Shown piece after piece: positions 3,932 to 20,644 of a stretch of DNA of 64,000 nt; positions within the stretch are counted from its first letter, which is position 1, and every line of letters starts with the position of its first letter. Source of the DNA: Bryobacterales bacterium (GTDB lineage: Bacteria > Acidobacteriota > Terriglobia > Bryobacterales > UBA6623). Where the stretch lies: contig CBDCFO010000006.1 of NCBI GenBank assembly GCA_965216215.1, forward strand, positions 89,870-153,869, read 5' to 3'. The position numbers and the translations under genes were made by a program. The notes under the pieces were generated by a model, which was given only the letters and a program-made list of their open reading frames with translations, ran no database searches and was not told the DNA's origin.

Positions 3932-3940
3932 GGCCGTCCA

Positions 3941-4945: not shown

Positions 4946-6979
4946 TCATCCGTTCTCTCCTTTCGCGCCCAGCGCGCCCTCGCGAAGCGCCTGCCAGTAG
5001 GGCTTGTCCGCCGGCAGGAAATAGGGCTTCAGATACACCCGCCTGGCGGCCATCGCGTTGCAGCCGTCGAACGGGATCACGATTGCCTGGCAGGTGCCGA
5101 GCGCTTCGAAGTCGTTGGGGTGGAACCGGGGCTCGCGGCGGCCCTGGTAGGACCTGCCGGCGCCCATGCTGGCACGGGCGCCCCCGGCCTTGCCGCTCAG
5201 CAGCGAGACGCCCGCCTGCGAGGTGTTCTCGCTGAAGTTGTAGCTGGCCTTCAGGCGTTCCACGGTGCCGCACATCTCGGATGCGGCCTTGGAGGTGTCA
5301 GGGTCGGCCGAGGTCAGGAATACCCGCGTCCGGAACGACTGCAGCAGCGTCTTCCACGCGTCGCCCCGCGTCGCGCTCTTCAGGGAAGAGATCGACTGCG
5401 TGGCCACGATCGGCACCACCCGCGACTGGCGTGTCAGGGGGAACGCCTTCTCGTCGCCTTGCGGCTCGTCCTCGCCGACCGTCGCGAACGACTGGTACTC
5501 GTCGCAGACGAAGACAGCCGGCCGCCAGTAGCGGTCCGGCTGGGCGGCCATGTCGGCGGGCCGCCGCAGGGCCGCCTGCAGCCAGGCCCCCTTGAGCATG
5601 ACGCCGACCGCGCGAGCCAGTGCGGGGCTCGTCCCGGCCGGCATGTTCAGGCAGAGCACCGTGCCGTTCTCGATCAGCTCGCGCAGCCGGGGCAGCGGCT
5701 GCAGCAGCGCGGGGACGACCCCGCTGAACGTCGCCCCTTCCTCCGGGACCTCGCCGGCGGCCGGCGGGCCGGGACAGAACACTCGGGCGACCTCCGGCTG
5801 GTCGAAGATCCCCAGGAACGACGAGATGCCCTCCACGACCGACGTCCGCAGCTTGCCGTCGAGCTTCCGCCAGTCCTTCTCGAGCCACAGCTCGAACGCG
5901 GCAAGGCGCCCCTCGGCGTCGGCAGCGACAGGCGGACTGGAGGGCCGCTCGCGCTTCGCCGCGATGCCGGCCTCCTCGAGGGTGTCGAGCAGGCCGCGCG
6001 TCATGGCCGCGGAGAGACTGTCCCCCTCGCGGGCCCAGGGTCCGAACCGCTGAAGGGCGGCAACCCGCGGAGCGAAGTCCTCCGCCCGGACCGTCACGCG
6101 CATGGCCGGCTCGTCCCGCACGTCGGCGCACGCCTGCACCAGGCGGCTGCTCAGCAGGCCGCTGTCGATCGCGCACCGGTACAGGTCGCGGAGCGTCACC
6201 CAGCGGCTGCTGTGGATGCGGTGCAGCTCGATCAGGTTCCGCAGCAGATTGGTCGAGGCCTGCTGCCAGAACGGCTCCTTGCCCTTGCCGAAGAGCTGGT
6301 TGAGCAGCGAGCTCAGCTGGTACGCCAGCGAATAGGAATCGACCTCGGGCGCGTCGAGCGGGTTCCACTGCCACCGGCCGCCGATGCCGATCTCGGCGTA
6401 GTCGCCCTCCCGCTGGCAGGCCTTGAGAATGGCGCGGACGTGGTGGCAGAAGTCGCCCTTGACCTCGAGCACCAGACCGCTCGCCCGCTTGTCCGGATCG
6501 GCGGCCTGCCAGCTGAAGAGCTGCGCGACGAACGGCCGCATGCAGGCGGCCGTCTTGCCGGAGCCCGTGGCCCCGAAAATAGCGGTCCCGGTGAAGAGGC
6601 CCGCAGCGGGGACCGTCAGCCATGTCGGCCGCTCGACCTCGACGGGATCCACCGGGTGGTGCTGCTCTCCGATGACGATGGCGGGCTCGGCCTCCCGGCC
6701 GCTGAGCGGCCACTCGGGGAGCGTGCCGCGGACAGCGGCGGGGCTGCCGCGCGGCCCCCACACATCCCAGGCCGACAAGGCGAAAGAGCCGGCGACGCCG
6801 ACGCCGGCCGCCGGCCAGGCCCAGCCCCACAGCCAGAACGCCCAGTACAGCGCCGGATCGTAGACCGCGACCAGGTCCAGCGCAGGCGCCTCCCCGGGAG
6901 CGGGCCAGGGCCAGAAGCGCCAGCGCGCCAGGACAGCCACCGCGCCGAAGGCCGCCCAGGCCAGCGCTCGCGGCGTCAT
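4946..6979 (-). CDS. virD4: VirD4/TraG-type type IV coupling protein
   Basis: N-terminal TM segments, Walker A FGATGSGKTAAC, VFVCDEYQSF Walker B and a TraG/TraD-like C-terminal region (VPIVATQSISSLKS). I chose the start at ATG 6979 (MTPRALAW...). The track ORF extends to 7237 through a lower-GC, repeat-rich non-coding stretch. Confidence 0.85.
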   Translation of the reverse strand: MTPRALAWAAFGAVAVLARWRFWPWPAPGEAPALDLVAVYDPALYWAFWLWGWAWPAAGVGVAGSFALSAWDVWGPRGSPAAVRGTLPEWPLSGREAEPAIVIGEQHHPVDPVEVERPTWLTVPAAGLFTGTAIFGATGSGKTAACMRPFVAQLFSWQAADPDKRASGLVLEVKGDFCHHVRAILKACQREGDYAEIGIGGRWQWNPLDAPEVDSYSLAYQLSSLLNQLFGKGKEPFWQQASTNLLRNLIELHRIHSSRWVTLRDLYRCAIDSGLLSSRLVQACADVRDEPAMRVTVRAEDFAPRVAALQRFGPWAREGDSLSAAMTRGLLDTLEEAGIAAKRERPSSPPVAADAEGRLAAFELWLEKDWRKLDGKLRTSVVEGISSFLGIFDQPEVARVFCPGPPAAGEVPEEGATFSGVVPALLQPLPRLRELIENGTVLCLNMPAGTSPALARAVGVMLKGAWLQAALRRPADMAAQPDRYWRPAVFVCDEYQSFATVGEDEPQGDEKAFPLTRQSRVVPIVATQSISSLKSATRGDAWKTLLQSFRTRVFLTSADPDTSKAASEMCGTVERLKASYNFSENTSQAGVSLLSGKAGGARASMGAGRSYQGRREPRFHPNDFEALGTCQAIVIPFDGCNAMAARRVYLKPYFLPADKPYWQALREGALGAKGENG

Positions 6980-7027
6980 CGCGAAGCCCCCGGGGCGTAG
7001 CGGCCGCCTTCCCGCAGGGATGAATTC

Positions 7028-7114
7028 GTAGGAGCGACCCCCGGACGCGGGATCATGTAACGCAGTGAGGATCCCGTGGTAGTCCGCAGGGCCCGAAAGG
7101 GGGGTCGCTCCTAC
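7028..7114. repeat. Nested inverted repeat, candidate oriT or regulatory structure
   Basis: Outer 15-bp perfect IR GTAGGAGCGACCCCC (7028-7042) / GGGGGTCGCTCCTAC (7100-7114). Inner 7-bp IR CGGGATC (7048-7054) / GATCCCG (7070-7076) whose loop contains ATGTAACG. GATGTAACG recurs at about 7198 and 7221. Confidence 0.85.
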
Positions 7115-7275
7115 CATTCTCGAACCCCTTCGACTGCCGCCAAACGGCGGTGCCCTCCACGGAAGCCTTTTGTCCACAAGCAGTTGCACCGACCATGGAT
7201 GTAACGTCGTCGTGCCAGTCGATGTAACGCGCACCAAATGTCCCCGTTACAGGGCGAACTGCCACGACACTCACC

Positions 7276-8220
7276 TCAGCGCCCCGTCGGCCCCAACCCG
7301 GCCAGCAGCGCGTGAACCTCGTCCGGACGGACCCTGTCCTGGCGCCCGCGGCCAGAAATCTCGCGCTTCCGCTGCAACTCGGCGACCCGCTTGATCGCGC
7401 CGTTCAGCCCGCCCCACTTCGACATTGCGACATCGTCGAGCGCAGCCAGGGCTCGTTCGGCGACCTTCAGTTCCTCGAGTAGGGCATTACTCATCCGCGC
7501 TGCAGGCCCCTGAATCCCGCGCTCTTTCCACCTGGTCAGGACACGCGCGGCACCCGTCACGCGCTCACCGGACGCACTTACCGCAACCACCTCCACGCGC
7601 ACGCCGCGCTCGGCAAGCGCGGACCACAGGGAGGCGTGCTCCGCACCCCAGGAGAGCAGCTCGTCATGCGTCTCGCCTCCCGTGTCGACATAAACGAACC
7701 GAGCGATGCCATCCCCGAACGCGACGGGCATTTTCCACCCGAACGGGCGCACGGTCCGTCCCCCTTTCGGCGATCCATAGATGCGTCTCGGGAACGCCTT
7801 GCGTTCGATTCCAAGAGCTTCGAATGCCGCCACTTTCTCTTGTTCGGTGGGCAGCCAGGAACGATTGAGATCGCCGAGCACGCAGTCCAGTGACAGCAGG
7901 CGGCGGAGCACCGTGTCCGCTGCGGCGTCCTTGCGGTGCCGGATGTGCTCGGCGCCGAGGACTCGGTAGACAGCGCGGGCATACAGCCTGCAGACCCGTC
8001 CGAGACCAGGCGAATCGCATTCCACCGCGATTCCGTTTTGCAGCAGGGAATCGACAAGTCGATGCGCTGGCACCCTCGAACGGACGCCACGGAACCGCCC
8101 GTACTGCGAGCGCAGGAAGACGCCGCTGTGCAGCGCGACCAGCGCGATCCACTCCGCCTCCCTGGGCTTGAAGCCGAGTTCCTCGACGGCCTTCTCGCGG
8201 CCCTGCAGATGCGCGATCAC
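7276..8220 (-). CDS. Hypothetical protein (314 aa), replication-relaxation-like (tentative)
   Basis: GTG start at 8220 overlaps the upstream stop (GTGA). The sequence VIAHLQGREKAVEELGFKPREAEWIALVALHSGVFLRSQY...RRLLSLDCVLGD...FVYVDTGGETHDEL is protein-like. The first ~290 aa of track ORF 7276-9090 are an R/G/P-rich out-of-frame artefact. Confidence 0.6.
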   Translation of the reverse strand: MIAHLQGREKAVEELGFKPREAEWIALVALHSGVFLRSQYGRFRGVRSRVPAHRLVDSLLQNGIAVECDSPGLGRVCRLYARAVYRVLGAEHIRHRKDAAADTVLRRLLSLDCVLGDLNRSWLPTEQEKVAAFEALGIERKAFPRRIYGSPKGGRTVRPFGWKMPVAFGDGIARFVYVDTGGETHDELLSWGAEHASLWSALAERGVRVEVVAVSASGERVTGAARVLTRWKERGIQGPAARMSNALLEELKVAERALAALDDVAMSKWGGLNGAIKRVAELQRKREISGRGRQDRVRPDEVHALLAGLGPTGR

Positions 8221-9083
8221 AGCTCGAGCAGCCCTCCGTCGCCGCCGCGTCCGCCACCACCTCCGCCGCCTCCGCGGCCCTCGAGGGCCGCCAGGTCGAG
8301 CTTGCGCCGCGCGCGCCCGTCCGCGGCGTGCATGCGGAACCCCGCCGCGAGCTTCGCGGAGATCTCCTTGGCGCGATAGTGTCCGGTCGCGACCTCGACG
8401 TTGACGCGCCCCCCGCGGCCCTCCGCGTCGACGTACTCGATCTGCAGGTCCGGATAGATCACCTTGCCGTCCACGACCGGCACCCCCAGCGCCTTGGCCG
8501 CCGCCTGCTTGACCCGCTCGGCGGCCTCGCGCCCGGACCGGGCGCGGGCCTTCTCCGCGGCCTTGGCGACCGCCGACTTGAGTTCGGAGTCGCAGCGGAT
8601 CCGCCGCACCGTCGCGCCTTCCCCCTCGAGCTTCCGGCACTCCTCCCGCCCGGCCCGGTAGACCGCGCCCTCGTGCGATGCCTCGCGCGCCTTCACGCGG
8701 CCGCCCCAGTAGCGCTGCCCGGGATCCAGCGGCTCGCGACGCTGGCCGGCGGCCTCGCGCCGGCCGGCCTGGGTGAGGTGCAGGACCTTGAACGGCCGGC
8801 CCTTCGGCCCCCGCGCGGAGAACTCCTCGACCAGGCCGCGCCGCTTGAGCTCGTCGATCCCGCGCCGCGCGGCGTAGGGATGGCCACCGAAGCGCTCGGC
8901 CGCGATGTCCGCCACCGCCGCGCAGCGGTAGATCCCGAGATCCTCCAGGGTCCGCCCCTGGCGCGTGGCGAAGCTGGCGCGCTCGCGTCGCGGGTCGTGT
9001 TCCCGGGGGTGTCCGGTCCGCCCCGGGTTCGCCCGGCCCCGGCCCTGCCGGCGGTCCCGCTCGACCTGCTGCGCCCGGCTCAC
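8217..9083 (-). CDS. wHTH protein (288 aa), replication-relaxation (Replic_Relax)-like, Gly-rich C-terminus
   Basis: GTG 9083 overlaps the trbL stop (GTGA). It has LEDLGIYRCAAVADIAAERFGGHPYAARRGIDELKRRGLVEEF...FKVLHLTQAGR (winged helix) and then YPDLQIEYVD...VNVEVATGHY (PD-ExK-like). It ends in GGGGGGGGRGGDGG. Confidence 0.65.
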   Translation of the reverse strand: MSRAQQVERDRRQGRGRANPGRTGHPREHDPRRERASFATRQGRTLEDLGIYRCAAVADIAAERFGGHPYAARRGIDELKRRGLVEEFSARGPKGRPFKVLHLTQAGRREAAGQRREPLDPGQRYWGGRVKAREASHEGAVYRAGREECRKLEGEGATVRRIRCDSELKSAVAKAAEKARARSGREAAERVKQAAAKALGVPVVDGKVIYPDLQIEYVDAEGRGGRVNVEVATGHYRAKEISAKLAAGFRMHAADGRARRKLDLAALEGRGGGGGGGGRGGDGGLLEL

Positions 9084-9934
9084 CGGCCACCCCGCAGCGC
9101 TGCCGACCCCTTGACCATGACAGCCGCCTTGCCGGCCGTCGCGGTGGCCGCCAGCGCTCCCAGCATGCCGCCTCCGCTGACGCTGCCGGAGACCAGGCCG
9201 GACGCCAGTTCCGGGATCTTGAACGTGGCCAGGATCCCGGCCAGGGCGAGCGCGATATACGACACGATCCACATCAGCGCCGCGCCGAGGGCGGACAGGT
9301 CGGGCGTGAGCGACTCCCAGATGCCGTCGCTGGCCGCTCGCACCGCTGCCAGGAAGACGCGCAGGACGCAGGCGGCGACCGCCGAGTACAGCGAGTACGT
9401 CAGCAGCGTCCGCAGCCACCCCCAGAAGAGGAAAGCGAGCGGCTCGAAGAGCAGGAACGGCACGAAGATCGGCCCGAGGGCGACGGCCACCGCGATCGCG
9501 AACTGGGCCCAGATCACCTGGGCGTAGCTCAACAGCACCAGCAGCAGCGAGACGATCGCCATGAACACCGCCAGGACCGCCAGCACGGCGCCGGCGATCA
9601 GGTTGCCGCCCATCGCCCCTATGTTGAATATCCAGAAGATGCCCCAGTCGCTCGCCGACGCGATCGCTTCGGTGAACGCCCGCGTGACGAACCCCCCGAG
9701 CCACCTCCAGGTCGACGAGTAGCTGTCGCGGGTAACCGTGTCGGCGACCCACGAGCCCATGCCCACGATCGCCTCCGGCAAGGTCAGCCCGCCCACGGGC
9801 ATCGGCGTGTCGTAGTAGAACAGGATCGTCCGCGGGACCATGATGGCCGTCACCAGCCGCACGATATCCCAGCCCGAAAAGCCGCCGCCGGAGAAGGCGA
9901 TCCGCACCCCGGTCCAGACGATGACGATCGCCGC
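9080..9934 (-). pseudogene. trbL: trbL/virB6 C-terminal fragment (disrupted by transposon insertion)
   Basis: Polytopic membrane protein (…IVIVWTGVRIAFSGGGFSGWDIVRLVTAIMV...LGPIFVPFLLFEPLAFLFWGWLRTLLTYSLYSAVAACV...). The frame stays open upstream to 9934 and then enters the transposon end. The track lists only 9080-9907, from an internal GTG. Confidence 0.8.
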
Positions 9935-10221
9935 GTGTTGTTTCCCACAACGATTCGTTGAATCGTCACGATCTTGAATCGGATTGTCTCGTGGCGGATC
10001 GGGTGGGAAAGCGGGTCAATCTGGTACGGAGAGCCGTGTCGTAGGGCGAGAGCGGCGGTCGCGAAGCTGACCAGGCCGGGGCTCAAAGGGAGGCACTGAT
10101 CGCCGTCAGGGGCGGCGTGTGCCGTGGATGGCGGCCGGGGTGCGGATCACGCAGGAACCGGGCCGGCCGCACTGCGATTGCGTTCAGCGAGCCGGCCCGG
10201 TTGAATAGGGTGGCCCGCGCG

Positions 10222-10878
10222 ATGGCAACTCGCCGGGCCGTGGGCGGCGTTATCCAGTTTCTGTACGGCACGGACCTCACCGCCGAGGACTACGTTAAGC
10301 GCCAGGCGTGGTGGGATGCAAGCCCGCCCGAGTGTCCCTACCATCCGCAGGGCGGCTGCGGACTGGTGCCGCACGGGACCTATGGTCGCAAAACCCCGAC
10401 CGGCACGCGGGTGCGGCGGTTCCTGTGCCCGGGATCGGGGCGGACGGTCAGCATGCTGCCGCGCTGCCTGGCGGCGCACTGGTCCGGGACGGTGGCGGAA
10501 GTCGAGCGGGTCGTGCGGGAGGCGGGCAAGGCGCAGAGCCTGGAAGAGGCGGCGAACCGGCTGCGCACGGACCACGTCAGCCTGGCCTCGGCGCTGCGCT
10601 GGGTGCGGCGGCGCGTACAGGCTGTGCGGGCGTTCCTGACGGTAGTGCGCACGATCTGTCCGGAGCGTTTCGGGCAGCTGGAGCCGAGCCTGGAGGCGTT
10701 CGGGGCCACGCTGGGCAGCGCGGCGGTCCTGCCGCGCCTGCGGGTGGTCGCGGAGCAGCGGCTGGGGTCGCTGCCGGCCCCGGTCGGCTTCTTCCGCCAG
10801 TGGCGCAAGGCGGGAATTCGCGGCCCGGCCCACGCCCCACACGCGCATGGTCTGGACCCCCCGCCGCCGACCGCCTAG
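10222..10878 (+). CDS. Hypothetical Cys/His-rich protein (218 aa), transposon gene 1
   Basis: ATG 10222 (MATRRAVGGVIQFLYG...). It has a CPYHPQGGCGLVPHG...RRFLCPGSG putative zinc-ribbon-like segment followed by a helical region. No confident family. Confidence 0.55.
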   Translation: MATRRAVGGVIQFLYGTDLTAEDYVKRQAWWDASPPECPYHPQGGCGLVPHGTYGRKTPTGTRVRRFLCPGSGRTVSMLPRCLAAHWSGTVAEVERVVREAGKAQSLEEAANRLRTDHVSLASALRWVRRRVQAVRAFLTVVRTICPERFGQLEPSLEAFGATLGSAAVLPRLRVVAEQRLGSLPAPVGFFRQWRKAGIRGPAHAPHAHGLDPPPPTA

Positions 10879-10924
10879 CTTGGGGGAACAGGCCGTCCGG
10901 CCACCCTTGCCAGGAGCGATTGCC

Positions 10925-12280
10925 ATGCCCGACATCGAAAACGACCCCCGCCGCGAAGTAGCCCTGTTCCGCTACGGCGTCATTGCGGAACTGCTGTGCC
11001 TGCCCGCCGGGTCGCCCGAGCGCTGGGCGGCCATGCGGGCCAAGGCCGCGCTCGCCCACGCCATTCCCGGCAGCTACCGCACCCGCGTCGCCGTCGAAAC
11101 CATGCGCGACTGGATCGCGCACTACGAGCGAGGCGGCTTCGAAGCGCTCTATCCCAAGCTCCGCGCGGACCGCGGCCGGACGCGGCAGCTGCCGCCCGCA
11201 GTCGCCGAGTTGCTGGTCGGCATCAAGGAGCGCCAGCCGCATCTGTCCGTCCGCGAGGTCATCCTCCAGGCCCGCGCCAGCGTCCCCCGCGAGGTGCTGC
11301 TGGCACCGTCCAGCGTCAACCGCCTGCTCCACCGCGAGGGGCTGATGGAGCGCGCCGACGAGCAGCCCGAGCCCAAGGACCGGCGCCGCTTCGCCTACCG
11401 CCTGGCCTCCGAATTGTGGATGAGCGATGTCATGCACGGCCCCCCGGTCGGCAGCGACAGCGGCGACCGCCGCCGCCGCGCCAAATCCTACTTGATCGCC
11501 TTCATTGATGACGCCACCCGCCTCGTGCCCCACGCCGCCTTCACCCTCTCCGAGAATGCCGCCACGTTCCTGCCCGTCTTCAAGCAGGCCCTCCTCAAGC
11601 GCGGCCTGCCGACTCGCTTGTATGTCGATAACGGCAGCAATTACCGCTGCCAGCACCTGGCCGTGATCTGCGCCACGCTCGGCATCAATTTGATCCATGC
11701 GACCGCTTACCAGCCTCAGGGGAAAGGCAAGATCGAAAGATTTTTCCGCACCTGCAGAGCGCAGCTGCTGCCCGCCTTGGGTGTTGACGACACCCGCAGC
11801 CTCGACGCGCTCAACGCCCGCCTCGCCGCCTGGATCGAGGGCGAGTACCATCTCAGCCCCCACCGCGGCCTCGACGGCAGGACCCCGCTCGAGAGCTGGT
11901 CCCGCAGCGCCTCCAGCGTCCGCCTGGTCGGACCGGAAACCGATCTCGACACGCTTTTCCGCTTCCGCCTCAAGCGCCGCGTCAGCAAGGACCGCACCGT
12001 CAGCCTGCTCGGCACCCTCTACGAGGTCGATGCCGCGCTCGTCGGCGAGAACATCCTCCTGCTGCACGACCCCTCCGTGCCGCGCTCGCGGCCCATCCCG
12101 GTGCTGCATGCGGGCCGCCAGGCCGGCCAGGCGACCCTCCTCGACGCGTATGCCAACACCCGCGTCAAACGCACCCGCGCGACGAACCGCCCCGACCAAG
12201 CCGTCGATCCCGCGCCCGCGCCGCAGCCCTCCCCCCTGCGCCTGCGCGCACTCCGCGCCCCCTGCCAGGAGCACGACTGA
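10925..12280 (+). CDS. DDE transposase, TnsB/MuA/TniA-like (HTH + rve core + Mu-transposase-C-like tail)
   Basis: AGGAG SD before ATG 10925. Candidate DDE triad in YLIAFIDDATR, LYVDNGSNY and QPQGKGKIERFF. The C-terminal DRTVSLLGTLYEVD... resembles the Mu transposase C-terminal barrel. Confidence 0.85.
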   Translation: MPDIENDPRREVALFRYGVIAELLCLPAGSPERWAAMRAKAALAHAIPGSYRTRVAVETMRDWIAHYERGGFEALYPKLRADRGRTRQLPPAVAELLVGIKERQPHLSVREVILQARASVPREVLLAPSSVNRLLHREGLMERADEQPEPKDRRRFAYRLASELWMSDVMHGPPVGSDSGDRRRRAKSYLIAFIDDATRLVPHAAFTLSENAATFLPVFKQALLKRGLPTRLYVDNGSNYRCQHLAVICATLGINLIHATAYQPQGKGKIERFFRTCRAQLLPALGVDDTRSLDALNARLAAWIEGEYHLSPHRGLDGRTPLESWSRSASSVRLVGPETDLDTLFRFRLKRRVSKDRTVSLLGTLYEVDAALVGENILLLHDPSVPRSRPIPVLHAGRQAGQATLLDAYANTRVKRTRATNRPDQAVDPAPAPQPSPLRLRALRAPCQEHD

Positions 12281-13080
12281 TGTACCTGTCCCACTTCGCC
12301 CTCTCCCGCTTCCCCTTCGAGCATGCCGCCCACCCCGACGAGCTGTTCGCCTCCCGCGCCGCCAGCGAGACCGAGACGCGCCTCCAGCATCTGCTCGAAC
12401 TGCGCGGCATCGGCCTGCTCACCGGCGAGGTCGGCTGCGGCAAGACCAGCGTCTGCCGCCGCGTCACCGCCGCCTTGCATCCCGGCCTGCACCGCGTCTA
12501 TTACGTGGCGCTTTCGACCGGATCCGTGCTCGACACCTACCAGGCGATCGCCTGGGAGCTCGGCCTCGCCAGCGTGCGCACCCGCGCCGCCGCCTACCGC
12601 GAGATCCGCACCGAGCTCTCGCGCCTCGTCCGCGAGTGCAAGCAACTCCCCGTGCTCGTCATCGACGAGGCGCACCACCTGCGCAACGACGTGCTCGAGG
12701 ATTTGCGCTTGCTCACCAATTTCCAGATGGACTCCGAGCACCGCCTGTGCCTGCTGCTCGTCGGCCTCACCGAGCTGCGCCGCCGCCTCTCCATGGCCGT
12801 CCACGAATCCCTCGCCCAGCGGCTCGTCGTGCGCCAGCACCTGGCCGGCCTCGACCGCGACGAGCTCGAGCCCTATCTCGCCCACCGCCTCGGCCTGGCC
12901 GGCTGCCAGCTCCCGCTGTTCGCGCCGCCCGCCCAAGAGGCCCTCTTCCAGGTCTCCCGCGGCCTGCCCCGGCAGGTCAACCGCTACGCCCACTACGCCC
13001 TCGTCGCGGCCGCCCTCGACAACGCTCGCACCGTCTCCGGCGAGCATCTCGAGCGCAGTTGCCAGGAGCTGGCCAAGTGA
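12280..13080 (+). CDS. AAA_22 / ExeA / TniB-like ATPase (266 aa)
   Basis: Walker A LLTGEVGCGKTS, Walker B PVLVIDEAHHL and the ExeA-like N-terminus MYLSHFALSRFPF. The start overlaps the transposase stop (TGATG). Confidence 0.85.
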   Translation: MYLSHFALSRFPFEHAAHPDELFASRAASETETRLQHLLELRGIGLLTGEVGCGKTSVCRRVTAALHPGLHRVYYVALSTGSVLDTYQAIAWELGLASVRTRAAAYREIRTELSRLVRECKQLPVLVIDEAHHLRNDVLEDLRLLTNFQMDSEHRLCLLLVGLTELRRRLSMAVHESLAQRLVVRQHLAGLDRDELEPYLAHRLGLAGCQLPLFAPPAQEALFQVSRGLPRQVNRYAHYALVAAALDNARTVSGEHLERSCQELAK

Positions 13081-13997
13081 GCCCCGCGACCGCCACGCCG
13101 CGCTGGACCGCCCGCGCCGACGGCGTCCGCGCGGCCCCGCTCGAACCGCTCGCCGTCCAGCTCGGCTACCGCCCCGACCCGCGCAACCCGGCCCGCTGGA
13201 AACGCCCTGGCTCGGTCCTCAGCATCACCGGCACGCGCTTCTTCGACCACCACCGCGGCGGCGGCGGCGGCGGTGCCATCGACCTCGTCATGCACGCCCG
13301 CGGCTGCCGCTTCCGCGCGGCCGTCGAGTTCCTCGAAAGCTGCCTCGGCCGCCGCCCCGCCCCCGCCGCGCCGCCGCCGGCCAGCCCGTCCGCGCCCCCA
13401 GCCACGCTCGCCAACTTGCAGCTCCCGCCCCGCGACGACCGCCTCTGGCCGCCCGTGCGCGACTTCCTCGTCACCGCCCGCCGCCTCGATCCCGGCCTGC
13501 TCGACCTCTGCCGTCAGGATGGCCTGCTCTACGCCGATCACCGCCGCAACGCCGTCTTCCTCTGCCATGACCCCCGGCGCCAGCCGACCGGTGCCGAGAT
13601 CGTCGGCACCCGCCCCGCTCCCGACGGCCGCACCTTCAAGGGCATGGCTCCCGGCTCCCGCAAGGCCCGCGGCGGCTTCTGGCTGCCCGCGCCCACTGCC
13701 GAGCTCGACGCGCTCTTGCTCGTCGAGAGTGCCCTCGACGCCCTCTCGGCGGTCCGCCTGCTGGCTCCCTCCCTGCCGCCCGACACGCTCGTCGCCTCCA
13801 CCGCCGGCCTTGTCTCCGCTCTCCCCCGCTGGCTGCAAGCCTTCCACGCTCCCCGCACCATCTGCGCCTACGATGCCGACCCTGCCGGCGACCAAGCCGC
13901 CGCCGCCCTCCGCCGCCACACTGCCAACTGCACGCGCCTCCGGCCTGTCGGCGCCAAGGACTGGAACGACTTGCTACGCCGTGCCCCCAGACGCTAG
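13077..13997 (+). CDS. DUF3991 + Toprim domain protein (306 aa)
   Basis: GTG 13077 overlaps the ATPase stop (GTGA). FFDHHRGGGGGGAIDLVMHARGCRFRAAVEFLE is DUF3991-like. LLLVESALDALS ... ICAYDADPAGDQAA is a Toprim E...DxD signature. The upstream part of track ORF 11697-13997 is an artefact. Confidence 0.75.
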   Translation: MSPATATPRWTARADGVRAAPLEPLAVQLGYRPDPRNPARWKRPGSVLSITGTRFFDHHRGGGGGGAIDLVMHARGCRFRAAVEFLESCLGRRPAPAAPPPASPSAPPATLANLQLPPRDDRLWPPVRDFLVTARRLDPGLLDLCRQDGLLYADHRRNAVFLCHDPRRQPTGAEIVGTRPAPDGRTFKGMAPGSRKARGGFWLPAPTAELDALLLVESALDALSAVRLLAPSLPPDTLVASTAGLVSALPRWLQAFHAPRTICAYDADPAGDQAAAALRRHTANCTRLRPVGAKDWNDLLRRAPRR

Positions 13998-14224
13998 CCC
14001 CTCCTCCGCACCGCGATCAACTGCAACATCGCCAGCCCTCGACCCGGCCGCAACACCCCGCCTCTCTCTGCTACTAGAAAACCCCGCCGCCGACCCCCTC
14101 CTCTCACGCGCACCCAACACTCCCCTCAACTCCTTCCTGCAGTAGCGAATCTACTTGAAAAATCTCCGCTTCAACTGCAGAAATAGCGTGGGATTCGCCT
14201 AGCGAAATAGCTTGGGAAACAACA

Positions 14225-14374
14225 CGCGAGGCCCTCCCACATCTGCTCTCCCGCGCCCAGCAGGGGCGCGGCGATGTCGGCCAGCAGGTCCTCCGTCAGG
14301 CTGTCCAGCATGGCCTTGATCGCCCCGGGGTCGTTCGAGTGGATCTGCTGGGCCCGGGTAAGGTCGACCTGCAT
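14225..14374 (-). pseudogene. trbL: trbL/virB6 N-terminal fragment (50 codons) cut by the transposon
   Basis: ATG 14374 gives MQVDLTRAQQIHSNDPGAIKAMLDSLTEDLLADIAAPLLGAGEQMWEGLA. Reading then enters the transposon right end (CCFPSYF...stop at 14171). Confidence 0.75.
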
Positions 14375-14410
14375 TGCGCTGCTCCGCTTGCCTCGAAGGC
14401 GCCTTCCCCG

Positions 14411-15313
14411 CTAGTAGACCGGCAGCTGCGGCGCGGTGAAGGCGTCGTCGGCCCCCGCCGCGTCGTAGCGGGCCATGATCGCGGCGGTGCCGTTGAACGC
14501 CGCCTCGACCCCGGCCACTGCCGCGGCCTGGTGCGCGGCGACGGCCTCGCGCTGGGCGGCCGCTTCCTCGACCGCCAGCTCCTCTTGCAGCGCCGCGAGC
14601 TGCAGCTGCGCCGCCAGCAGGTCGCCGCCGGCCGCGGCGGCGCTGATCTGCTTTTGCTGCAGCGCCGTGGCCGAGACTCCCGGGTCGGCGGCGATGCCCT
14701 CCAGTCTCTGCCGGATGTCCGCAAGCAGTTGCGCGTTGCGCTCGGCCGCCGCGGCCCGCGCGCTCGTGATGGCGTCGAGCCTCGCGATCACATCGGCGCG
14801 CTCCTGCGCTACCCGCGCGCCGATGTCAGCCCGCGTTTCCGCGGGCGGAGCCACCACCGGACTGCCGATCGGAGTCGTCACGGGCGCCGCCGCCCAGGCG
14901 CCGCGGATGTCCGCTTCGGTCGGCAGCGGGGCCAGCAGGCCCGAGGCCAGCTGCGCCGCGCGGGTGCGGACCTGGCCGGCCCGCGTGATCCAGCCCTGGA
15001 CCTGGCCCGGGGCGCCCAGCACGGTGGCTGCGGGGAACATCTGGTTCCAGTTCGCGAGGGCGCCGATGCGCCCCTCGGCGAACAGGAAGGCCTGGGTCAG
15101 CTGCGAATCCAGGGTGTTGATCATGGTCGTGGTGTTGGTGATCAGCGACGCGATGCCCGCGAGCTGGGCGTTGGAAGTGATCGCGTGATGGACGCGCTGC
15201 CCGAAAGCGGCGATGTCGAAGGTGGGGAAGCCCGCGCTGGCGCTGGCCGCCAGCAGTAGGGCGGCCGCGAACGCGCTTGCCAGAGTGCGGCGCTTGCGCC
15301 TGGATTTGGTCAT
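14411..15313 (-). CDS. TrbJ/VirB5-like secreted coiled-coil T4SS protein (300 aa)
   Basis: ATG 15313 with GGAGGA SD, overlapping the virB10 stop (ATGA). Signal peptide MTKSRRKRRTLASAFAAALLLAASASA, then FPTFDIAAFGQRVHHAITSNAQL... and Ala/Gln-rich coiled coil. Position upstream of trbL fits TrbJ. Confidence 0.65.
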   Translation of the reverse strand: MTKSRRKRRTLASAFAAALLLAASASAGFPTFDIAAFGQRVHHAITSNAQLAGIASLITNTTTMINTLDSQLTQAFLFAEGRIGALANWNQMFPAATVLGAPGQVQGWITRAGQVRTRAAQLASGLLAPLPTEADIRGAWAAAPVTTPIGSPVVAPPAETRADIGARVAQERADVIARLDAITSARAAAAERNAQLLADIRQRLEGIAADPGVSATALQQKQISAAAAGGDLLAAQLQLAALQEELAVEEAAAQREAVAAHQAAAVAGVEAAFNGTAAIMARYDAAGADDAFTAPQLPVY

Positions 15314-16581
15314 GGTGTCCTCCTGGAAGTGGAATGCAACTGGAACGCAGGGCGCGGCACCAGCGCGTCGGAAGTGAAGATGACGCGCAGCCTCTGCCCG
15401 GCGCGGATGGTGACTGTCGGCAGCCTGTTCAGGTACCGGTCGAGGATCGTCTCGCCGGCACGGCCCATGCCGGTGCCGGCCCCGGCCCGCGCGCCTTCGC
15501 TGCCGCCCGCGTAGGGCTGGGAGCCGCGCAGCGTGAGTCCGGAGATCACGCCCACGGCGCCGGCCGCCCCGATCGTGGACAGGTAGTGCCGGTTCACGCG
15601 GTCCTGCAGCCCGGACGCCCCGGACTGGTCCAGCCCCCCGAACTCGAGACGGATGTAGCGCCCGTCCGGGAACACGAGGCGGTGGAACGAGACCGCCAGG
15701 CGCGCCTGCTGCCAGTCCCCGACGGCCTCGGCGCGGCCGATCGCGCGGGTGCCGCGAGGGATCAGGATACGCTGGCGGTCCCGGGACCACAGGGGGGCGG
15801 AGACGATGGCAAGCGCGGGACCGGGGAAGTCGCCCCGGAGCTGGGTGGCCAGGACCGCCTCGAGGATCTGGCCCTCGAAGATCCGCTCCCAGCCCGGAGG
15901 GTCGTCCGGCTGCGTCGGTGGCGTCGGAGTCCCGTCGGCCGGCTCGGGCACGCCGGCCTCGCCCGCCAGCCCCTGCAGTTCGGCAAGCTCGCCGGGACCG
16001 GCAACTGCGGCCGGGGCGGGCGCCGTCCTCGCAGCTGCCGGCATGCCCGCCTCCGCGGCGGGGACCCCGGCCGGATCCGCCGCCGGTCGCAGGGAGAACG
16101 CCACCACCGGCGAGGAGAGGGCCTCGTGCTCCCGCCGGATCCGGGCCAGCCGCAGCTCCTCCCTGAGCTGCCGCTCGGGGGTGTCCGGCTCCGGACCGCT
16201 GCCGGGCGAGAGGCCCGGCACGGGCCCCTGCGCGCCGGCCGCCGGCCGCCCGGGCAGGCCTCCGGCGGCAGTGGCCGCCTGCAGGCGCGCCGTTTCGTCT
16301 GCGTTGCGCGCCGCCTGCAGCCGGGCGGCCTGGTCCCTGAGCCGCGCGATGGCCGCCGAGGTCGGCGACACGACCGCCGCGCCCCCCACGGCCTGCTCGT
16401 TGATCGCCGTGTCGGCGGCGGTTTCCCCGGCAGCGCCGGCCTCGCCCTCCTCGTCGCTCGATGGCGAGGTGAGGATGACCAGGGCCATGATCACGGCCCC
16501 GCCAATGATCCCGACCTTGTTGATCACCCCCTTCGGCAGCGTGCCGAGGGGATTGCGCGGCCGCCGGATCCAGCCGCTCAT
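15310..16581 (-). CDS. virB10: VirB10/TrbI (423 aa)
   Basis: ATG 16581 overlaps the virB9 stop (ATGA). N-terminal TM helix, Pro/Ala-rich linker and a TrbI barrel (ILEAVLATQLRGDFPGPALAIVSAPLWSRDRQRILIPRGTRAIG...LVFPDGRYI). Confidence 0.85.
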   Translation of the reverse strand: MSGWIRRPRNPLGTLPKGVINKVGIIGGAVIMALVILTSPSSDEEGEAGAAGETAADTAINEQAVGGAAVVSPTSAAIARLRDQAARLQAARNADETARLQAATAAGGLPGRPAAGAQGPVPGLSPGSGPEPDTPERQLREELRLARIRREHEALSSPVVAFSLRPAADPAGVPAAEAGMPAAARTAPAPAAVAGPGELAELQGLAGEAGVPEPADGTPTPPTQPDDPPGWERIFEGQILEAVLATQLRGDFPGPALAIVSAPLWSRDRQRILIPRGTRAIGRAEAVGDWQQARLAVSFHRLVFPDGRYIRLEFGGLDQSGASGLQDRVNRHYLSTIGAAGAVGVISGLTLRGSQPYAGGSEGARAGAGTGMGRAGETILDRYLNRLPTVTIRAGQRLRVIFTSDALVPRPAFQLHSTSRRTP

Positions 16582-17411
16582 AGCAGCCCCTTGGCCGGCA
16601 GGTAGACCCAGTCCGCCCGCTGTTTTCCGATCTGCAGCCAGCCGTCCCGCAGGACTCGCTGGGCGACGTACAGGCCGTCCGCGGTGAGCTCGTACTCGAC
16701 CAGGCTCGGCTTGCCGTCGCGGGACTCGTAGATCGCCGGCGACTCCGGCGCCGTGCTGCGCAGGTAGGTGTGCCGGCCGTCGTTCCACATCGCCACGACG
16801 CTGAAGGGGTCCCGGCGGGCCTTGGCGTCGAGCCTGTACTCGAACTTCATGGCCCCCGGGTACGCCGACCGGAAGGCCTCCACCTGCTCCTCGATCGTCC
16901 GCTCCGCCGCGGCCCGCGCCCTGGAGGCGTCCTCGATGGCTTCCCGGGCCGCGGCCTCGTAGCCCGCGACCTCGGACGCGGCGACGAAGGCCGGCTGGTG
17001 GACGGGCGAGCCGATCTTGCCCCCGCCGGGATCGGCGGGCTCGCCGACCTCGACGTGCACCACCAGGTCCGGCTCGCCGCCGCCCTCCCGGCACAGGAAC
17101 GAGTAAATGTTACCGCTGCGCGTGACGAGGGCGACATTCGTTTTCTCGCCCTTTGCCTGGGGCTTGAGGTAGGCGATGTTCGCCTCCCCCTTGAGCTGCC
17201 AGAACTCGGTGTCCCCGGCGACGAAGTCGGCGATGAGCTCGTTCGCAGGCAGCGCGATGACCGTGGTGTGCCGCACGGCCGCGCGGATCTCAATGATTTC
17301 GTCGAGCGAGTCCAGCCGCACCCTCCGCGCCTCGGCGCCTCCCGCGACCTGGATCGCGGCCAGCGCCAAGACGGCCGCGAGAACAACTTTCTGCGTCGGA
17401 ACTTTCGTCAT
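16578..17411 (-). CDS. virB9: VirB9/TrbG-like outer-membrane core protein (277 aa)
   Basis: Signal peptide MTKVPTQKVVLAAVLALAAIQVAGGA. N-domain (VRHTTVIALPANELIADFVAGDTEFWQLKGEANIAYLKPQ...) and C-domain (FSVVAMWNDGRHTYLRS...). The start, set by counting 277 residues back from the stop, overlaps the virB4 stop. Confidence 0.8.
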   Translation of the reverse strand: MTKVPTQKVVLAAVLALAAIQVAGGAEARRVRLDSLDEIIEIRAAVRHTTVIALPANELIADFVAGDTEFWQLKGEANIAYLKPQAKGEKTNVALVTRSGNIYSFLCREGGGEPDLVVHVEVGEPADPGGGKIGSPVHQPAFVAASEVAGYEAAAREAIEDASRARAAAERTIEEQVEAFRSAYPGAMKFEYRLDAKARRDPFSVVAMWNDGRHTYLRSTAPESPAIYESRDGKPSLVEYELTADGLYVAQRVLRDGWLQIGKQRADWVYLPAKGLL

Positions 17412-19837
17412 TTTCGGTACTCCCCCATGGCGAGCCGGTCGAGGGCTCCGGACAGCCCGTGCTCCGCGATCGCCCGCGCCCGCTTCGCGGCATCCCGCGC
17501 CGAGCTCGTGTACAGCCAGTACGAGCGCCGGTCGACGTGCAGCCGCAGCACCTCGGCCTCGCCGGTCCGGCGCAGGTAGATCTCCTCCTTCGGGACCAGC
17601 CCGCGGATCTGGTCCACCTCCGCTCGCGTCAGCTGGAAGGTTTCCGCCAGGTCCTGCGGAAACTCCGGGTTGGCCAGGAACAGCCGCGTGGGCGTCGCTT
17701 CCAGCAGGCCCCTGGCCGTGTCCGCCCGGGACAGGTCCGCCCCGGACTGCGTGGCGAGCAGCAGCGCCGCGTTCTTCTTCCGCCAGGTCTTGGCAGCCTC
17801 CGCGAGATACGCGCTGACGGTCGAGTCCTTGAGGAATTTCCAGGCCTCGTCGACGACGGCGATCTTCACGCGCCCCAGGTCGGACGGGTCGTCGATTTCG
17901 TGCCGCATCTTCTCCAGGTAGTAGCCCAGCGCCGCCTCGACCAGGTCGTCGTGCTGGGCGGCGCTGGCCAGGTCGACGACCTGCCACTCGCCCCAGGCGT
18001 CCTCCGCGCCCGCGACGGGCGGGTTGTCGAACACCGCGCCCCAGGTGCCGCTGCCGACCCACCGCGACATCGCCGGCTTCATGCGGTTGAGCAGCGAGCC
18101 CGCCAGCGACCCCAGCCTGCGCTCCGGCAGCGGGAACCGGTACAGGTCCTCCACCAGCTTGCGGATCTCGGTGGTGTCCCCGCCCGACGTCTCGTACCCG
18201 CCCAGCTCGAGCAGCCGCCGCACCCAGCCGGCGAGGAACTGGAAGGTACGCTCTCCCGGCGGCAGCGAGAACGGCCGCACCCGCGTTGGCGCGTGCGGGT
18301 CGGGCGAGAGCTGCAGGTAGTCCCCGCCCAGCAGCTGCGTCAGCGGCCGGTAGGATCCGCCCAGGTCGAGGATGAACACGCGCGGCCCGTACTTCACCGC
18401 CGAAACCAGCAGGAAGTTCAGCAGGAAGCTCTTGCCCGATCCGGTCTGGCCCAGGATCAGGGTGTGCCCGATGTCGCCGCCGCCGCCGCCGAACAGGTCG
18501 TAGTGGTAGGGCGTGCCCTCGCGGGTCTCGAGCACGCACAGGCATTCCTCGTCCAGGTGGCCGCTGCGCGGCGAGCCCAGCGTCGGCCCGCACAGCGGGG
18601 CCAGCGCCGCCGCGACGCCGGCGGAGACGAGCAGCGGGCGCGGCTGGTTCGCCCACGCCGCCCCGGGCAGCCGCGCGAAGTAGGCTGCCAGCTGCCCGTA
18701 GCTCTCGCGAATAGCCTTGGCGTCGCAGGACGCGAAGATGCGCCGCACCGCGGCATCGTGCCGCTCGATCTCCTCGAGCGGGCCGTGCAAGGTCAGGCCC
18801 AGCGCGAGTTCCCCGTAGGGCATGCCGTCGGCCTCGAGCTCGGCCTGCGCCAGGCCCAGCCGCGCCGCTTCCGTGTCGGCCGCCTCGTCGAGCATGGCGG
18901 AGGTGGTCCCCGCCGTGTCCTGCGCGTGGGCCATCATGCCGAAGCGCTTGGCGAAGAAGAATTTCCGGGCGGTGGCGATGCGCGACCGCGCCTTGTCCGT
19001 GGGGAGCCTGCGGAACTCCCACGACACGGTCATCGTGGCCGGCAGCTGCAGCAGCTCGCGCAGCTGGTCGGCCGCCGCCTCGGAGGGCGGCTCGACCAGC
19101 GAATAGACCAGCGCGTCCTCGCCGTCGATCCGCACCTGCCGGCGCTCCGCCTCGATCTCGGACTGGGCCAGGCGCCAGTGCAGCCCCGAGCCCCGCGCGA
19201 CGGGCGCCGCCGTGCCGGGACGGTTGACCAGCTCGCTCAGGATCCGGGTGGCCTCGTCGGGCCCGAGGATCCGGATCGGCGTCAGGTCCTCGACCAGCCG
19301 GCAGTACGCGTCGACGTCCTGCCGCAGCCGCACGCAGGCGTCCTCGAGGTTGCTGCGGATCCAGGCCGTCCGGCGGTCCGGCTGCAGCAGGGCCTGGATG
19401 CGTTCGAGCCAGGCCGGCGCGCCGTTGGCCGAGGGGGCGGGCTTGAGGCGCGGGTCCCGTGTCCAGGCGATGCAGATTTCGAGCTGGGAGAGCCGCCTGT
19501 GCAGGTGTGCAGCCCGCGCCCGCGCCGACTCGCCGGCGATTCCCTCCTCGCCCGCTGCTGCCGCCGGCAGGGGCCGTCGCAGAACGAACAGCGACAGGCG
19601 CGTGCGCTCGTCCAGCTGGCCCAGCCCCCGCACCCACCGCTCCACGACGGCGGAGATCTGCGCGTGACCCAGGCCGGCGGTGGGACAGGGCGTGAGCCGC
19701 CCCATCGTGACCAGCTCGGCCCGCCGGGTCAGGCAGGTGCGGCCGTCCTCGAGCCAGCCGAAGTAGGGGATCTCCGCCTCGAGCGATCCCGCTTCCTCGC
19801 GCGCTTTCCGGAACGCTGCCGCCGCCGAGCCCGGCAT
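17408..19837 (-). CDS. virB4: VirB4/TrbE ATPase (809 aa)
   Basis: Walker A LILGQTGSGKSFLLN and Walker B IAVVDEAWKFL, with size and position typical of VirB4. Confidence 0.92.
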   Translation of the reverse strand: MPGSAAAAFRKAREEAGSLEAEIPYFGWLEDGRTCLTRRAELVTMGRLTPCPTAGLGHAQISAVVERWVRGLGQLDERTRLSLFVLRRPLPAAAAGEEGIAGESARARAAHLHRRLSQLEICIAWTRDPRLKPAPSANGAPAWLERIQALLQPDRRTAWIRSNLEDACVRLRQDVDAYCRLVEDLTPIRILGPDEATRILSELVNRPGTAAPVARGSGLHWRLAQSEIEAERRQVRIDGEDALVYSLVEPPSEAAADQLRELLQLPATMTVSWEFRRLPTDKARSRIATARKFFFAKRFGMMAHAQDTAGTTSAMLDEAADTEAARLGLAQAELEADGMPYGELALGLTLHGPLEEIERHDAAVRRIFASCDAKAIRESYGQLAAYFARLPGAAWANQPRPLLVSAGVAAALAPLCGPTLGSPRSGHLDEECLCVLETREGTPYHYDLFGGGGGDIGHTLILGQTGSGKSFLLNFLLVSAVKYGPRVFILDLGGSYRPLTQLLGGDYLQLSPDPHAPTRVRPFSLPPGERTFQFLAGWVRRLLELGGYETSGGDTTEIRKLVEDLYRFPLPERRLGSLAGSLLNRMKPAMSRWVGSGTWGAVFDNPPVAGAEDAWGEWQVVDLASAAQHDDLVEAALGYYLEKMRHEIDDPSDLGRVKIAVVDEAWKFLKDSTVSAYLAEAAKTWRKKNAALLLATQSGADLSRADTARGLLEATPTRLFLANPEFPQDLAETFQLTRAEVDQIRGLVPKEEIYLRRTGEAEVLRLHVDRRSYWLYTSSARDAAKRARAIAEHGLSGALDRLAMGEYRK

Positions 19838-20133
19838 CAGACCAGGTCAACCTCGGTCCTCCGACCCGCCTTGCCCGGGTCGTAGCGCGGCTTGTACCGC
19901 TGGGCGACCTTGATGATGCGCAGCATGGCGGGATCCTCCCGGCAGGCGGCCACGCCGAGGGCGTACCCCGCGGCCCCCACGACCGTCCCGAACGCGAGGC
20001 TGTAGGTGGCCGTGTACAGGGCGTACGCCAGGATGCCGTTGAGGATGAACCAGGTGCGCTCGCAGCCGGCGATCATGAGCGGCCGGTTGAGGGCCTGGGA
20101 GGCAACCCACTTCCTGCGCCGGTCGTGGTCCAT
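19837..20133 (-). CDS. virB3: VirB3/TrbD (98 aa)
   Basis: MDHDRRRKWVASQALNRPLMIAGCERTWFILNGILAYAL... is the typical VirB3 motif and two-TM topology. The start overlaps the virB2 stop (TGATG) and the stop overlaps the virB4 start. Confidence 0.8.
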   Translation of the reverse strand: MDHDRRRKWVASQALNRPLMIAGCERTWFILNGILAYALYTATYSLAFGTVVGAAGYALGVAACREDPAMLRIIKVAQRYKPRYDPGKAGRRTEVDLV

Positions 20134-20405: not shown

Positions 20406-20479
20406 GGGATGAGAGATTCGAGGTCTCGGCATACGGCGATGGTCGCGCCCGAACCGCACTCGTGCAAGGCCGCGGCGGA

Positions 20480-20644
20480 TCACCCGAGCGGGATCGATCC
20501 CGGCTGCCGCAGCAGCGCCAGGACATTGAGAAGGGTCTCGATCGCCGCGCCGCTGGGATCGGCCAGAGCGAGGATGTCCGGCCAGGGGTTGTCGTTCCGG
20601 ACAGGGCTCTCTCCCGGCGCAACGCGCCGCCCGCTGTGGTCCAT
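20480..20644 (-). CDS. Possible small protein (54 aa) at the head of the T4SS operon
   Basis: MDHSGRRVAPGESPVRNDNPWPDILALADPSGAAIETLLNVLALLRQPGSIPLG with GC3-rich codons. No SD and no recognisable family. Confidence 0.3.
   Translation of the reverse strand: MDHSGRRVAPGESPVRNDNPWPDILALADPSGAAIETLLNVLALLRQPGSIPLG

Follow-up and report, generated by a model that had tools for sequence, protein, structure and literature searches.

A Mu/Tn552-class transposon of Bryobacterales with a DnaG-type primase homologue encoded in its transposition operon

The 64-kb stretch of Bryobacterales DNA analysed here (the window) contains an intact element of 4289 bp at 9936-14224, in which four co-oriented genes encode, in this order, a Cys/His protein (ORF1, for open reading frame 1), a DDE transposase, an AAA+ ATPase and a DUF3991-Toprim protein (ORF4). 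That the element is a bona fide DDE plus AAA+ transposon is hardly open to doubt. We read it as an autonomous 4.3-kb DDE transposon, probably still active, which is sister to the Tn552-type modules within the Mu/Tn7/Tn5053/Tn552 group and which primes its own replication; we put the probability of this reading at roughly 0.55. It is a Mu/Tn552-class transposon with a new accessory set, the surprising part of which is the DnaG-type primase. An earlier examination of the same letters (the sequence-only reading) had delimited this four-gene element, and all of the sequence features that it described were found in place. Coordinates are collected in Table 1.

ORF4 was analysed by domain, profile and fold searches. 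Pfam domains DUF3991 and Toprim_2 were detected in the protein. When the single sequence was searched against the PDB nothing was found, and matches were obtained only with the family profile and the fold search. An AlphaFold2 (AF2) model built with 38 homologues reached a predicted local distance difference test (pLDDT) score of 91, and its top Foldseek matches were Aquifex DnaG (2au3, comprising the zinc-binding and RNA-polymerase domains), Twinkle, the E. coli DnaG core and the T7 gp4 primase fragment, with E values of 4e-6 to 1e-3. Moreover, the family profile matched the E. coli DnaG core (E 0.0017). When ORF4 was aligned with DnaG, ESAxDA fell on the Toprim glutamate and CAYDADxAGD on the DxD motif (E217, D266xD268), and the DUF3991 part aligned with the N-terminal catalytic subdomain of DnaG. 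Residues E217, D221, D266 and D268 are invariant in the 38 homologues. These combined data strongly suggest that ORF4 has a primase fold and that its active site, for which catalysis is predicted, is intact, and they assign a DnaG-type primase identity to the DUF3991-Toprim architecture. The DUF3991-Toprim protein of the sequence-only reading is thus a DnaG-type primase homologue, although it is not universal in the family, a small ORF being found in a sister clade. Outside transposons, ORF4 is most closely related (29-37% identity, full length) to stand-alone DUF3991-TOPRIM genes beside type IV secretion system (T4SS) genes and to the MobV relaxases of small plasmids, in their C-terminal half, as in pAES1 (37% identity, full length). 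These relatives are plasmid transfer or mobilisation primases, and they share with ORF4 the full-length architecture and the DnaG-type catalytic core. Unlike them, ORF4 forms part of a transposition operon, to which it is translationally coupled, and its closer relatives are found almost only there.

The same matches bear on whether the Toprim domain of ORF4 might instead be a nuclease that cuts the 5' non-transferred strands in the manner of TnsA, so that the element would move by cut-and-paste. Small Toprim nuclease-type structures scored far worse than primases (2fcj, E 0.1; JetD, 0.16), and it was the entire ORF4 protein, with the DUF3991 part on the DnaG catalytic subdomain, that matched the DnaG zinc-binding and RNA-polymerase domains and the T7 gp4 fragment, not Toprim alone. 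Given also that the nearest relatives are plasmid primases and that relatives without ORF4 still transpose, we regard a nuclease role as very improbable, even though Toprim domains act as nucleases in OLD-family and related proteins, the element has no other second-strand nuclease, and the zinc-binding domain of ORF4, which reads the template in primases, has lost its ligands.

ORF4 is translationally coupled to the ATPase, as the ATPase is to the transposase. The ATPase start overlaps the transposase stop in TGATG (12278-12282), and the GTG start of ORF4 overlaps the ATPase stop in GTGA (13077-13080). This latter 4-nt overlap is kept in five of six diverged elements, which supports the earlier suggestion that the Toprim gene belongs to the transposition operon. 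The ATPase matched Pfam AAA_22 (1e-25) and, weakly, TniB (4.6e-4), with no IstB_IS21 match in the Pfam scan, and its best solved relative is MuB of phage Mu (8xvb, 4.9e-5). Its Walker A and B motifs are canonical, and catalytic residues are conserved in the ATPase as they are in the transposase and in the primase-like protein. Domains of TnsA, TniQ or a resolvase, whose absence had been noted from the start, were found in none of the four element proteins with Pfam and NCBIfam, nor in a fold search with ORF1.

In the transposase, Pfam detected HTH_32, rve (4.6e-10) and rve_3. Its DD(35)E triad is formed by D195/D196, D235 and E271 in the motifs FIDDATR, VDNGSNY and GKIERFF, and is invariant in 26 relatives that include Tn552-like outgroups. 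The best solved relative is TnsB of ShCAST, a type V-K CRISPR-associated transposon or CAST (4e-6); the PDB match is to TnsB residues 279-451, and the TnsB alignment covers the core and the start of the beta-barrel (residues 227-384). For the Mu-type C-terminal domain, PF09299 was not matched by the window transposase itself; homologues of ∼60% identity carry precomputed PF09299 annotations, and a Cupriavidus relative gave weak matches (5.6e-4 and 4.5e-3). Once the DUF6431-associated clade is set aside, the plasmid-borne transposases that come closest are 'Mu transposase C-terminal domain' proteins in resolvase-transposase-AAA ATPase modules of Tn552 architecture (23-30% identity, E 1e-10 to 5e-22), and the next are those of the ISNCY/ISKpn21 and IS1202 groups. 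Taken together, the rve, TnsB and MuB matches uphold the placement in the Mu/Tn7/Tn5053 superfamily that the sequence-only reading had proposed, with Tn552 added to it.

Among the NCBIfam insertion sequence (IS) models, the transposase scored best with IS481 (193.5 bits over residues 78-350); the IS21 model gave 33.5 bits (cut-off 160). The element could accordingly be viewed as an oversized IS481-family IS that moves by copy-out-paste-in via a circular intermediate and has three passenger or accessory genes. The Prokaryotic Genome Annotation Pipeline (PGAP) labels some Geobacillus relatives 'IS481 family transposase', TGT ends and a variable duplication length are typical of IS481 in the ISfinder description, and copy-out also needs priming, which is compatible with a primase. 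This reading is nonetheless improbable, as the IS481 score lies under the curated cut-off of 224 and the transposase has an extra C-terminal domain of ∼100 amino acids (aa), with a Mu-transpos_C signal in relatives, in a region that aligns to the TnsB core and beta-barrel. A MuB-like ATPase is invariably coupled to the transposase, whereas IS481 elements have none and consist of a single gene of ∼1 kb compared with four genes in 4.3 kb here. Furthermore, the nearest modules in BLAST searches after the DUF6431 clade are Tn552-like.

The ends of the element were defined by comparison of copies. Identical copies on other contigs (loci L005, L007 and L008-L013) stop exactly at TGTTG...CAACA and have unrelated flanks; therefore, 9936 and 14224 are the true ends. 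The exact 12-bp inverted repeat TGTTGTTTCCCA occurs twice in the whole window, at 9936-9947 (+) and 14213-14224 (-); a shuffle count that allowed ≤2 mismatches was uninformative. Termini of the form TGT(T/A)G...CAACA are common to all 12 subfamilies, so that the TGT...ACA ends recognised earlier are kept throughout and agree with the TG...CA ends of the superfamily. The element is bordered on both sides by CGCG, which is palindromic and would also lengthen the inverted repeat to 16 bp. The option that CGCG is part of such a 16-bp repeat, with a 0- or 2-bp duplication, was ruled out by the identical copies elsewhere that terminate at TGTTG/CAACA. The interrupted gene, a trbL/virB6 homologue, gave further information on the duplication. 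Removal of the element plus one CGCG (4293 bp, 3 x 1431) rejoins both halves of the TrbL/VirB6 ORF in frame, the 50 N-terminal codons (14374-14225) being fused in silico to the TrbL-domain part (9935-9080), and a 5-bp duplication would not restore the frame. This junction was judged by explicit codon reading; a longest-ORF test is misleading here, all frames being open at 70% GC. A tblastn search with the reconstructed TrbL against plasmids gave no match, and no empty site was found in this way. The insertion in trbL probably renders the conjugative element transfer-defective.

To survey duplication lengths, ends were fixed by multi-copy comparison in the 12 subfamilies and 68 independent insertions were scored. 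Duplications of 5 bp were the most frequent (35 insertions, the mode), followed by 4 bp (18), 6 bp (9), 7 bp (2) and 3 bp (1); the remaining three insertions had 0 bp, with mismatched flanks, and are probably recombinants. With fixed ends, different lengths correspond to different alignment registers, which means that the spread is genuine and does not come from repeats extended by chance. The sequence-only reading had set the 4-bp CGCG duplication against the 5-bp duplications of the superfamily and had held that 5-bp duplications in other copies would make CGCG coincidental. Such copies do exist in number (35/68), and 4 bp is not a hallmark of a family in which lengths run from 4 to 7 bp. 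However, CGCG is no coincidence: the window's 4-bp duplication is real by the trbL frame, genuine and common (18/68), only not family-defining. Likewise, the fixed 5-bp duplication that is a trait of Mu, Tn7 and Tn5053 was not observed, 5 bp being the mode only and the window copy having 4 bp. At 5-bp duplications, C was found at position 2 in 23/34 and G at position 4 in 20/34 (C and G backgrounds 36% and 33%), a symmetric N-C-N-G-N preference, and insertion sites were dispersed, not site-specific. The target consensus of Mu is N-Y-S-R-N. As a separate observation, T directly follows the 4-bp duplication on the right flank in 10/18 cases (background 16%, binomial P = 1.4e-4); the 18 insertions with 4-bp duplications include L039, L044, L054, L059, L063, L067, L079, L092, L095, L100 and others. 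When the base before the 4-bp duplication is counted as position 1, these sites also fit N-C-N-G-N.

Sub-terminal sequences were also compared. Hexamers of the GAATCG type, whose recurrence near both ends had been pointed out before, are enriched: six lie in 250 bp of both ends (∼0.4 expected) and one in the 4-kb interior, with a window mean of 1.75 per kb. The ends of Mu, Tn7 and Tn552 typically have several sub-terminal sites, and by analogy the sites in the window element may serve as transposase-binding sites. The left non-coding end presumably contains such binding sites together with the operon promoter. In the right end, a 34-bp block (14131-14164), which includes TTGAAA and GCGAATC motifs, is 100% identical in L014 (∼8366-8399) and L015 (∼8221-8254), where the transposases are 62-70% identical to that of the window; the proteins of elements with the identical block are only 62-76% identical. 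A hidden small ORF 3' of ORF4, like the 64-76-aa ORF of sister elements, was considered and rejected, the '...SFLQ*' frame having no stop in subfamilies G2 and G4. Because the in-frame stop is lost in these subfamilies, the block is conserved as DNA and non-coding, and it could be a cis site, either a binding site or an outward or inward promoter. A terminator scan of the element returned two terminator-like matches, at chance level.

ORF1 matched nothing in Pfam or NCBIfam, and PF20020 (DUF6431) was not matched even at E 10. However, a profile of 35 ORF1 homologues matched the DUF6431 proteins of Cupriavidus and Geobacillus elements (hhalign probability 96.4%, E 1.2e-9), which occupy the same position in these related plasmid elements; in the alignment the second CxxC is replaced. 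The Cys/His protein of the sequence-only reading is thereby refined to a probable divergent DUF6431 homologue, which links a Pfam orphan to this family. An AF2 model of ORF1 (pLDDT 85) gave no significant match in a fold search against the PDB (best E 0.16), on which ground ORF1 was rejected as a TniQ or TnsA analogue.

The distribution of the element was examined at several levels. Identical elements were present in at least six different sequence contexts, the exact transposase on at least 14 contigs, and 64 further related insertions each had their own direct repeat. At least 24 copies of a single subfamily were found in one Bryobacterales metagenome-assembled genome (MAG). When GTDB species genomes were scanned with the ORF4 alignment, 388 relatives were obtained, and locus analysis was carried out on the best 78, which come mainly from Bryobacterales MAGs and also from Paracoccaceae, Rhodobacterales, Rhodospirillales and Chloroflexota MAGs. 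The order ORF1-transposase-ATPase-ORF4 was complete in 63 of these 78 loci; those examined among the remaining 15 were truncated copies or short contigs, and in L029, L035 and L088 a second ORF4 match in the same locus had been picked. ORF4 and transposase identities drop in parallel across the relatives. No match to the whole element was found by megablast against PLSDB plasmids. The transposase family is far larger than the ORF4 set, with more than 4600 clusters at E < 1e-20, and a core of three genes, DUF6431-DDE-ATPase, occurs widely on Cupriavidus, Pandoraea, Acidithiobacillus and Geobacillus plasmids. In elements of ∼60% identity (L016-L019, L108 and L109), the ends and first three genes are the same and an ORF of 64-76 aa ending in ...PF replaces ORF4. 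The plasmid elements of Cupriavidus, Pandoraea and Acidithiobacillus (38-44% identical; first gene annotated DUF6431) also carry a small ORF, not ORF4. The small protein has an SDEAA-like motif and a C-terminal ...(L/D/P)PF, with no Pfam match; perhaps it is an adaptor for transposition whose place the primase has taken. A neighbour-joining tree placed the small-ORF clade (L016, L108, L109; bootstrap 98) within primase-type diversity, where its sister is the primase-type clade of Paracoccaceae (bootstrap 91). This nesting implies that the fourth gene was exchanged at least twice.

These comparisons allow a different role for ORF4 to be weighed, that of cargo. According to this explanation, ORF4 would be a plasmid-type primase from a mobilisation module; ORF1, the transposase and the ATPase would suffice for transposition, and by priming the complementary strand ORF4 would benefit the carrier replicon, or the element itself after conjugative entry. 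Its closest non-transposon relatives are indeed relaxase-fused or T4SS-adjacent plasmid primases, it is last in the operon, which is the usual place of a passenger gene, related elements without it are multi-copy, and many insertions lie in conjugative or mobile DNA (trbL in the window, beside a relaxase in L020, near trbI in L022). However, the window element destroys a conjugation gene, and most Bryobacterales copies are chromosomal and dispersed. Moreover, ORF4 is the sole gene in its slot across transposases diverged to 49-57% identity, diverges in concert with them and still overlaps the ATPase gene by 4 nt, and the clade without ORF4 has a conserved small ORF in the slot, from which it can be argued that this position encodes a transposition factor. 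We therefore consider a cargo role rather unlikely. The odds that ORF4 acts in a replication or repair step of transposition fall a little short of even.

A self-priming element might be expected to work as follows. By homology, the transposase would bind the 12-bp termini and the sub-terminal repeats, pair the ends and expose CA-3'OH. The MuB-like ATPase would coat target DNA and activate strand transfer through the presumed C-terminal beta-barrel of the transposase, as in Mu, Tn7 and IS21; the control of DDE transposases by AAA+ regulators, and the role of the transposase beta-barrel in it, have been described (PMC11208146). The ends would then attack the target with a flexible stagger of 4-6 bp and a preference for N-C-N-G-N pentamers. 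Because a TnsA-like 5'-end nuclease is lacking, the product would be a branched Shapiro-type intermediate. ORF4, whose translational coupling would keep its production in step with that of the ATPase, would prime synthesis on this intermediate, so that the element would be copied, not excised, independently of the host restart primosome. Cointegrates would be resolved by host recombination, a resolvase being absent. Copy-and-paste is the simplest model that we infer from the gene content (no 5' nuclease or resolvase, and a primase coupled to the ATPase). Copy numbers as high as those observed agree with this model and do not prove it. More specifically, and only tentatively, the MuB-like ATPase may also recruit the transposon-encoded DnaG-type primase to the strand-transfer fork, which would allow replicative transposition without the host restart primosome. 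The 64-76-aa ORF of the sister elements would then be an alternative adaptor that recruits host factors.

Several results weigh against self-priming. Conserved Cys4 or Cys3His zinc ligands are absent from ORF4 in the 38 homologues, where F55, D57, H58, G65, G66 and D69 are invariant instead, and the protein terminates ∼10 residues past Toprim, where a helicase-binding domain is missing; ORF4 thus has no evident means of recognising a template or of being recruited. The small-ORF sister clade and the distant DUF6431 clade are multi-copy and have the same ends without ORF4, from which it follows that the wider family can transpose without the primase. No consensus promoter was found in a sigma-70 scan of the element. 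Finally, ORF1 (DUF6431-like, Zn-ribbon-type) is proposed by analogy with InsA of IS1 to be a sequence-specific DNA-binding cofactor or regulator, which is pure inference.

The element was compared with known systems. The Tn552 family shares with it a DDE transposase, with a Mu-type C-terminal domain that is putative in the window element, and a small AAA+ ATPase encoded directly behind; TniQ and TnsA are missing from both. Tn552-like modules lie on Sphingobium, Bacillus, Enterococcus and Listeria plasmids, and Tn552 itself is from Staphylococcus. In contrast to the window element, in which no Resolvase domain was found in the four ORFs, Tn552-type modules carry a serine resolvase (BinL-type) and a res site. 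The window element has in addition a DUF6431-like gene upstream, a primase-like gene downstream, 12-bp repeats and no resistance cargo. The terminal repeats of Tn552 are ∼116 bp long, and its duplications were reportedly found by Rowland and Dyke to be 6-7 bp, a length that, as in the window family, is not fixed at 5 bp. Likeness to Mu is seen in MuB as the best solved ATPase relative, TG...CA ends, the modal 5-bp duplication, the resemblance of N-C-N-G-N to N-Y-S-R-N and the absence of a resolvase, and the pathway proposed above would also be replicative. However, the element is not a phage, its transposase (451 aa) is much smaller and nearer to IS481-type cores, and the duplication, strict in Mu, is variable in this family. 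Mu recruits host PriA, DnaB and DnaG and encodes no primase. Tn5053/Tn402 (TniA-TniB-TniQ-TniR) and Tn7-like elements (TnsA/B/C/D/E, CASTs) likewise combine a DDE transposase with an AAA+ regulator; the window element differs from them in lacking a TniQ/TnsD selector, TnsA and a resolvase, and in its dispersed, not site-specific, insertions. With IS21 (IstA/IstB) it shares a transposase plus AAA+ helper, translational coupling and variable duplication lengths, but its ATPase is AAA_22/MuB-like, with no IstB_IS21 match, and it has two extra genes. That the gene combination is not a described family, as the sequence-only reading had supposed, is in accord with our finding no name or description of the set in the literature or among the NCBIfam IS models, a comparison outside which ISfinder and TnCentral lay. 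PGAP labels the relatives generically ('DDE-type integrase/transposase/recombinase', 'ATP-binding protein', 'DUF6431 domain-containing protein').

To our knowledge, the hand-over from strand transfer to the replisome is understood for phage Mu only, and in E. coli only. A 4.3-kb element with a primase beside its AAA+ regulator would make this hand-over testable with four proteins, and if self-priming is true, it would be the first bacterial DDE transposon known to have a dedicated replication-initiation enzyme. In MAGs of Bryobacterales (Acidobacteriota) and Paracoccaceae the family is highly successful and attains dozens of copies in a genome; it is therefore a major, so far unnamed driver of genome rearrangement in both groups. 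It could also serve as a random-insertion tool in phyla without genetic tools.

Table 1. Features of the element, its target gene and the small fourth ORF of related elements (window positions unless a locus is named)
Feature	Position	Strand	Description	Basis
3' part of interrupted trbL/virB6	9080..9935	-	target gene, outside the element	Pfam TrbL 2.5e-14
Left target-site duplication	9932..9935	.	CGCG	sequence, flank comparison, trbL frame restoration
Left terminal inverted repeat	9936..9947	+	TGTTGTTTCCCA; element begins at TGT	same terminus in L005, L007, L008-L013
Left non-coding end	9936..10221	+	AT-richer tip; GATTCG/GAATCG repeats at 9951-9981; inverted TTTCCCAC at ∼10003-10010	
ORF1	10222..10878	+	218 aa; Cys/His beta-rich N-terminal domain and helical C-terminal domain; probable divergent DUF6431 homologue	
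DDE transposase	10925..12280	+	451 aa, identical to P0001; HTH (helix-turn-helix), rve DD(35)E core, C-terminal beta-barrel-like tail	
AAA+ ATPase	12280..13080	+	266 aa; AAA_22, Walker A GEVGCGKT, Walker B VLVIDEAH; MuB/TniB-like	
ORF4	13077..13997	+	306 aa; DnaG/T7-gp4-type mini-primase homologue: degenerate zinc-binding-like N-terminal domain, DUF3991, Toprim	
Conserved sub-terminal block (34 bp)	14131..14164	+	TCCTTCCTGCAGTAGCGAATCTACTTGAAAAATC	identical in L014 and L015
Direct copies (two) of 16-bp repeat in right end	14181..14220	-	GTTTCCCAAGCTATTT and GAATCCCACGCTATTT, 24 bp apart	
Right terminal inverted repeat	14213..14224	-	element terminates ...GGGAAACAACA	
Right target-site duplication	14225..14228	.	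CGCG	sequence, flank comparison, trbL reconstruction
5' part of interrupted trbL/virB6	14225..14374	-	50 codons	
Small fourth ORF of primase-less relatives	L016 7146-7373; L001 6188-6385; L002 6118-6342; L003 6125-6322; L108 5659-5889; L109 3673-3867			

The target gene lies within a conjugative T4SS operon (window 2948-22052, minus strand) that comprises RepA_C, VirB3, VirB4, TrbI, the split TrbL, a coupling protein, VirB11 and a pentapeptide-repeat protein; the ORFs at 7276-9090 and 14411-15790 of this region had no Pfam match. The GC content of the element is 71%, like that of its flanks. It amounts to 70-72% in the element and 8 kb on each side and to 64.8% in the whole window, so that GC must be considerably lower elsewhere in the window. 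An Rfam scan of the window returned nothing.

Some further observations were made on individual copies. At L107 (1133-8422), one element (+ strand, ∼2600-6750) is inserted in opposite orientation into the ATPase gene of another copy, with AAA_22 fragments on both sides and Toprim and rve genes beyond; this nesting points either to target immunity that is weak or lacking or to a target copy that was already dead. ORFs of DruA (DUF4338, Druantia-type) are cut by or abut elements in three unrelated loci (L006 4266-5162, L014 8442-9005 and L019 1114-1995), an association that may reflect a preferred target or a shared genomic island. In L008 and L009, which are short ENA metagenome contigs, the window's trbL flank is present on one side and a different flank on the other, and the foreign flanks share CGGGGC. 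The two look like assembly chimeras across two repeat copies and, taken as a pair, imply a further insertion site at which 6 bp were duplicated. Finally, two copies are decayed: that in L014 (∼4340-8459) lacks its left end together with the initial third of ORF1, and ∼200 bp of additional DNA follow its ORF4, whereas that in L006 (∼5020) is missing the first 9 bp of the left terminus.

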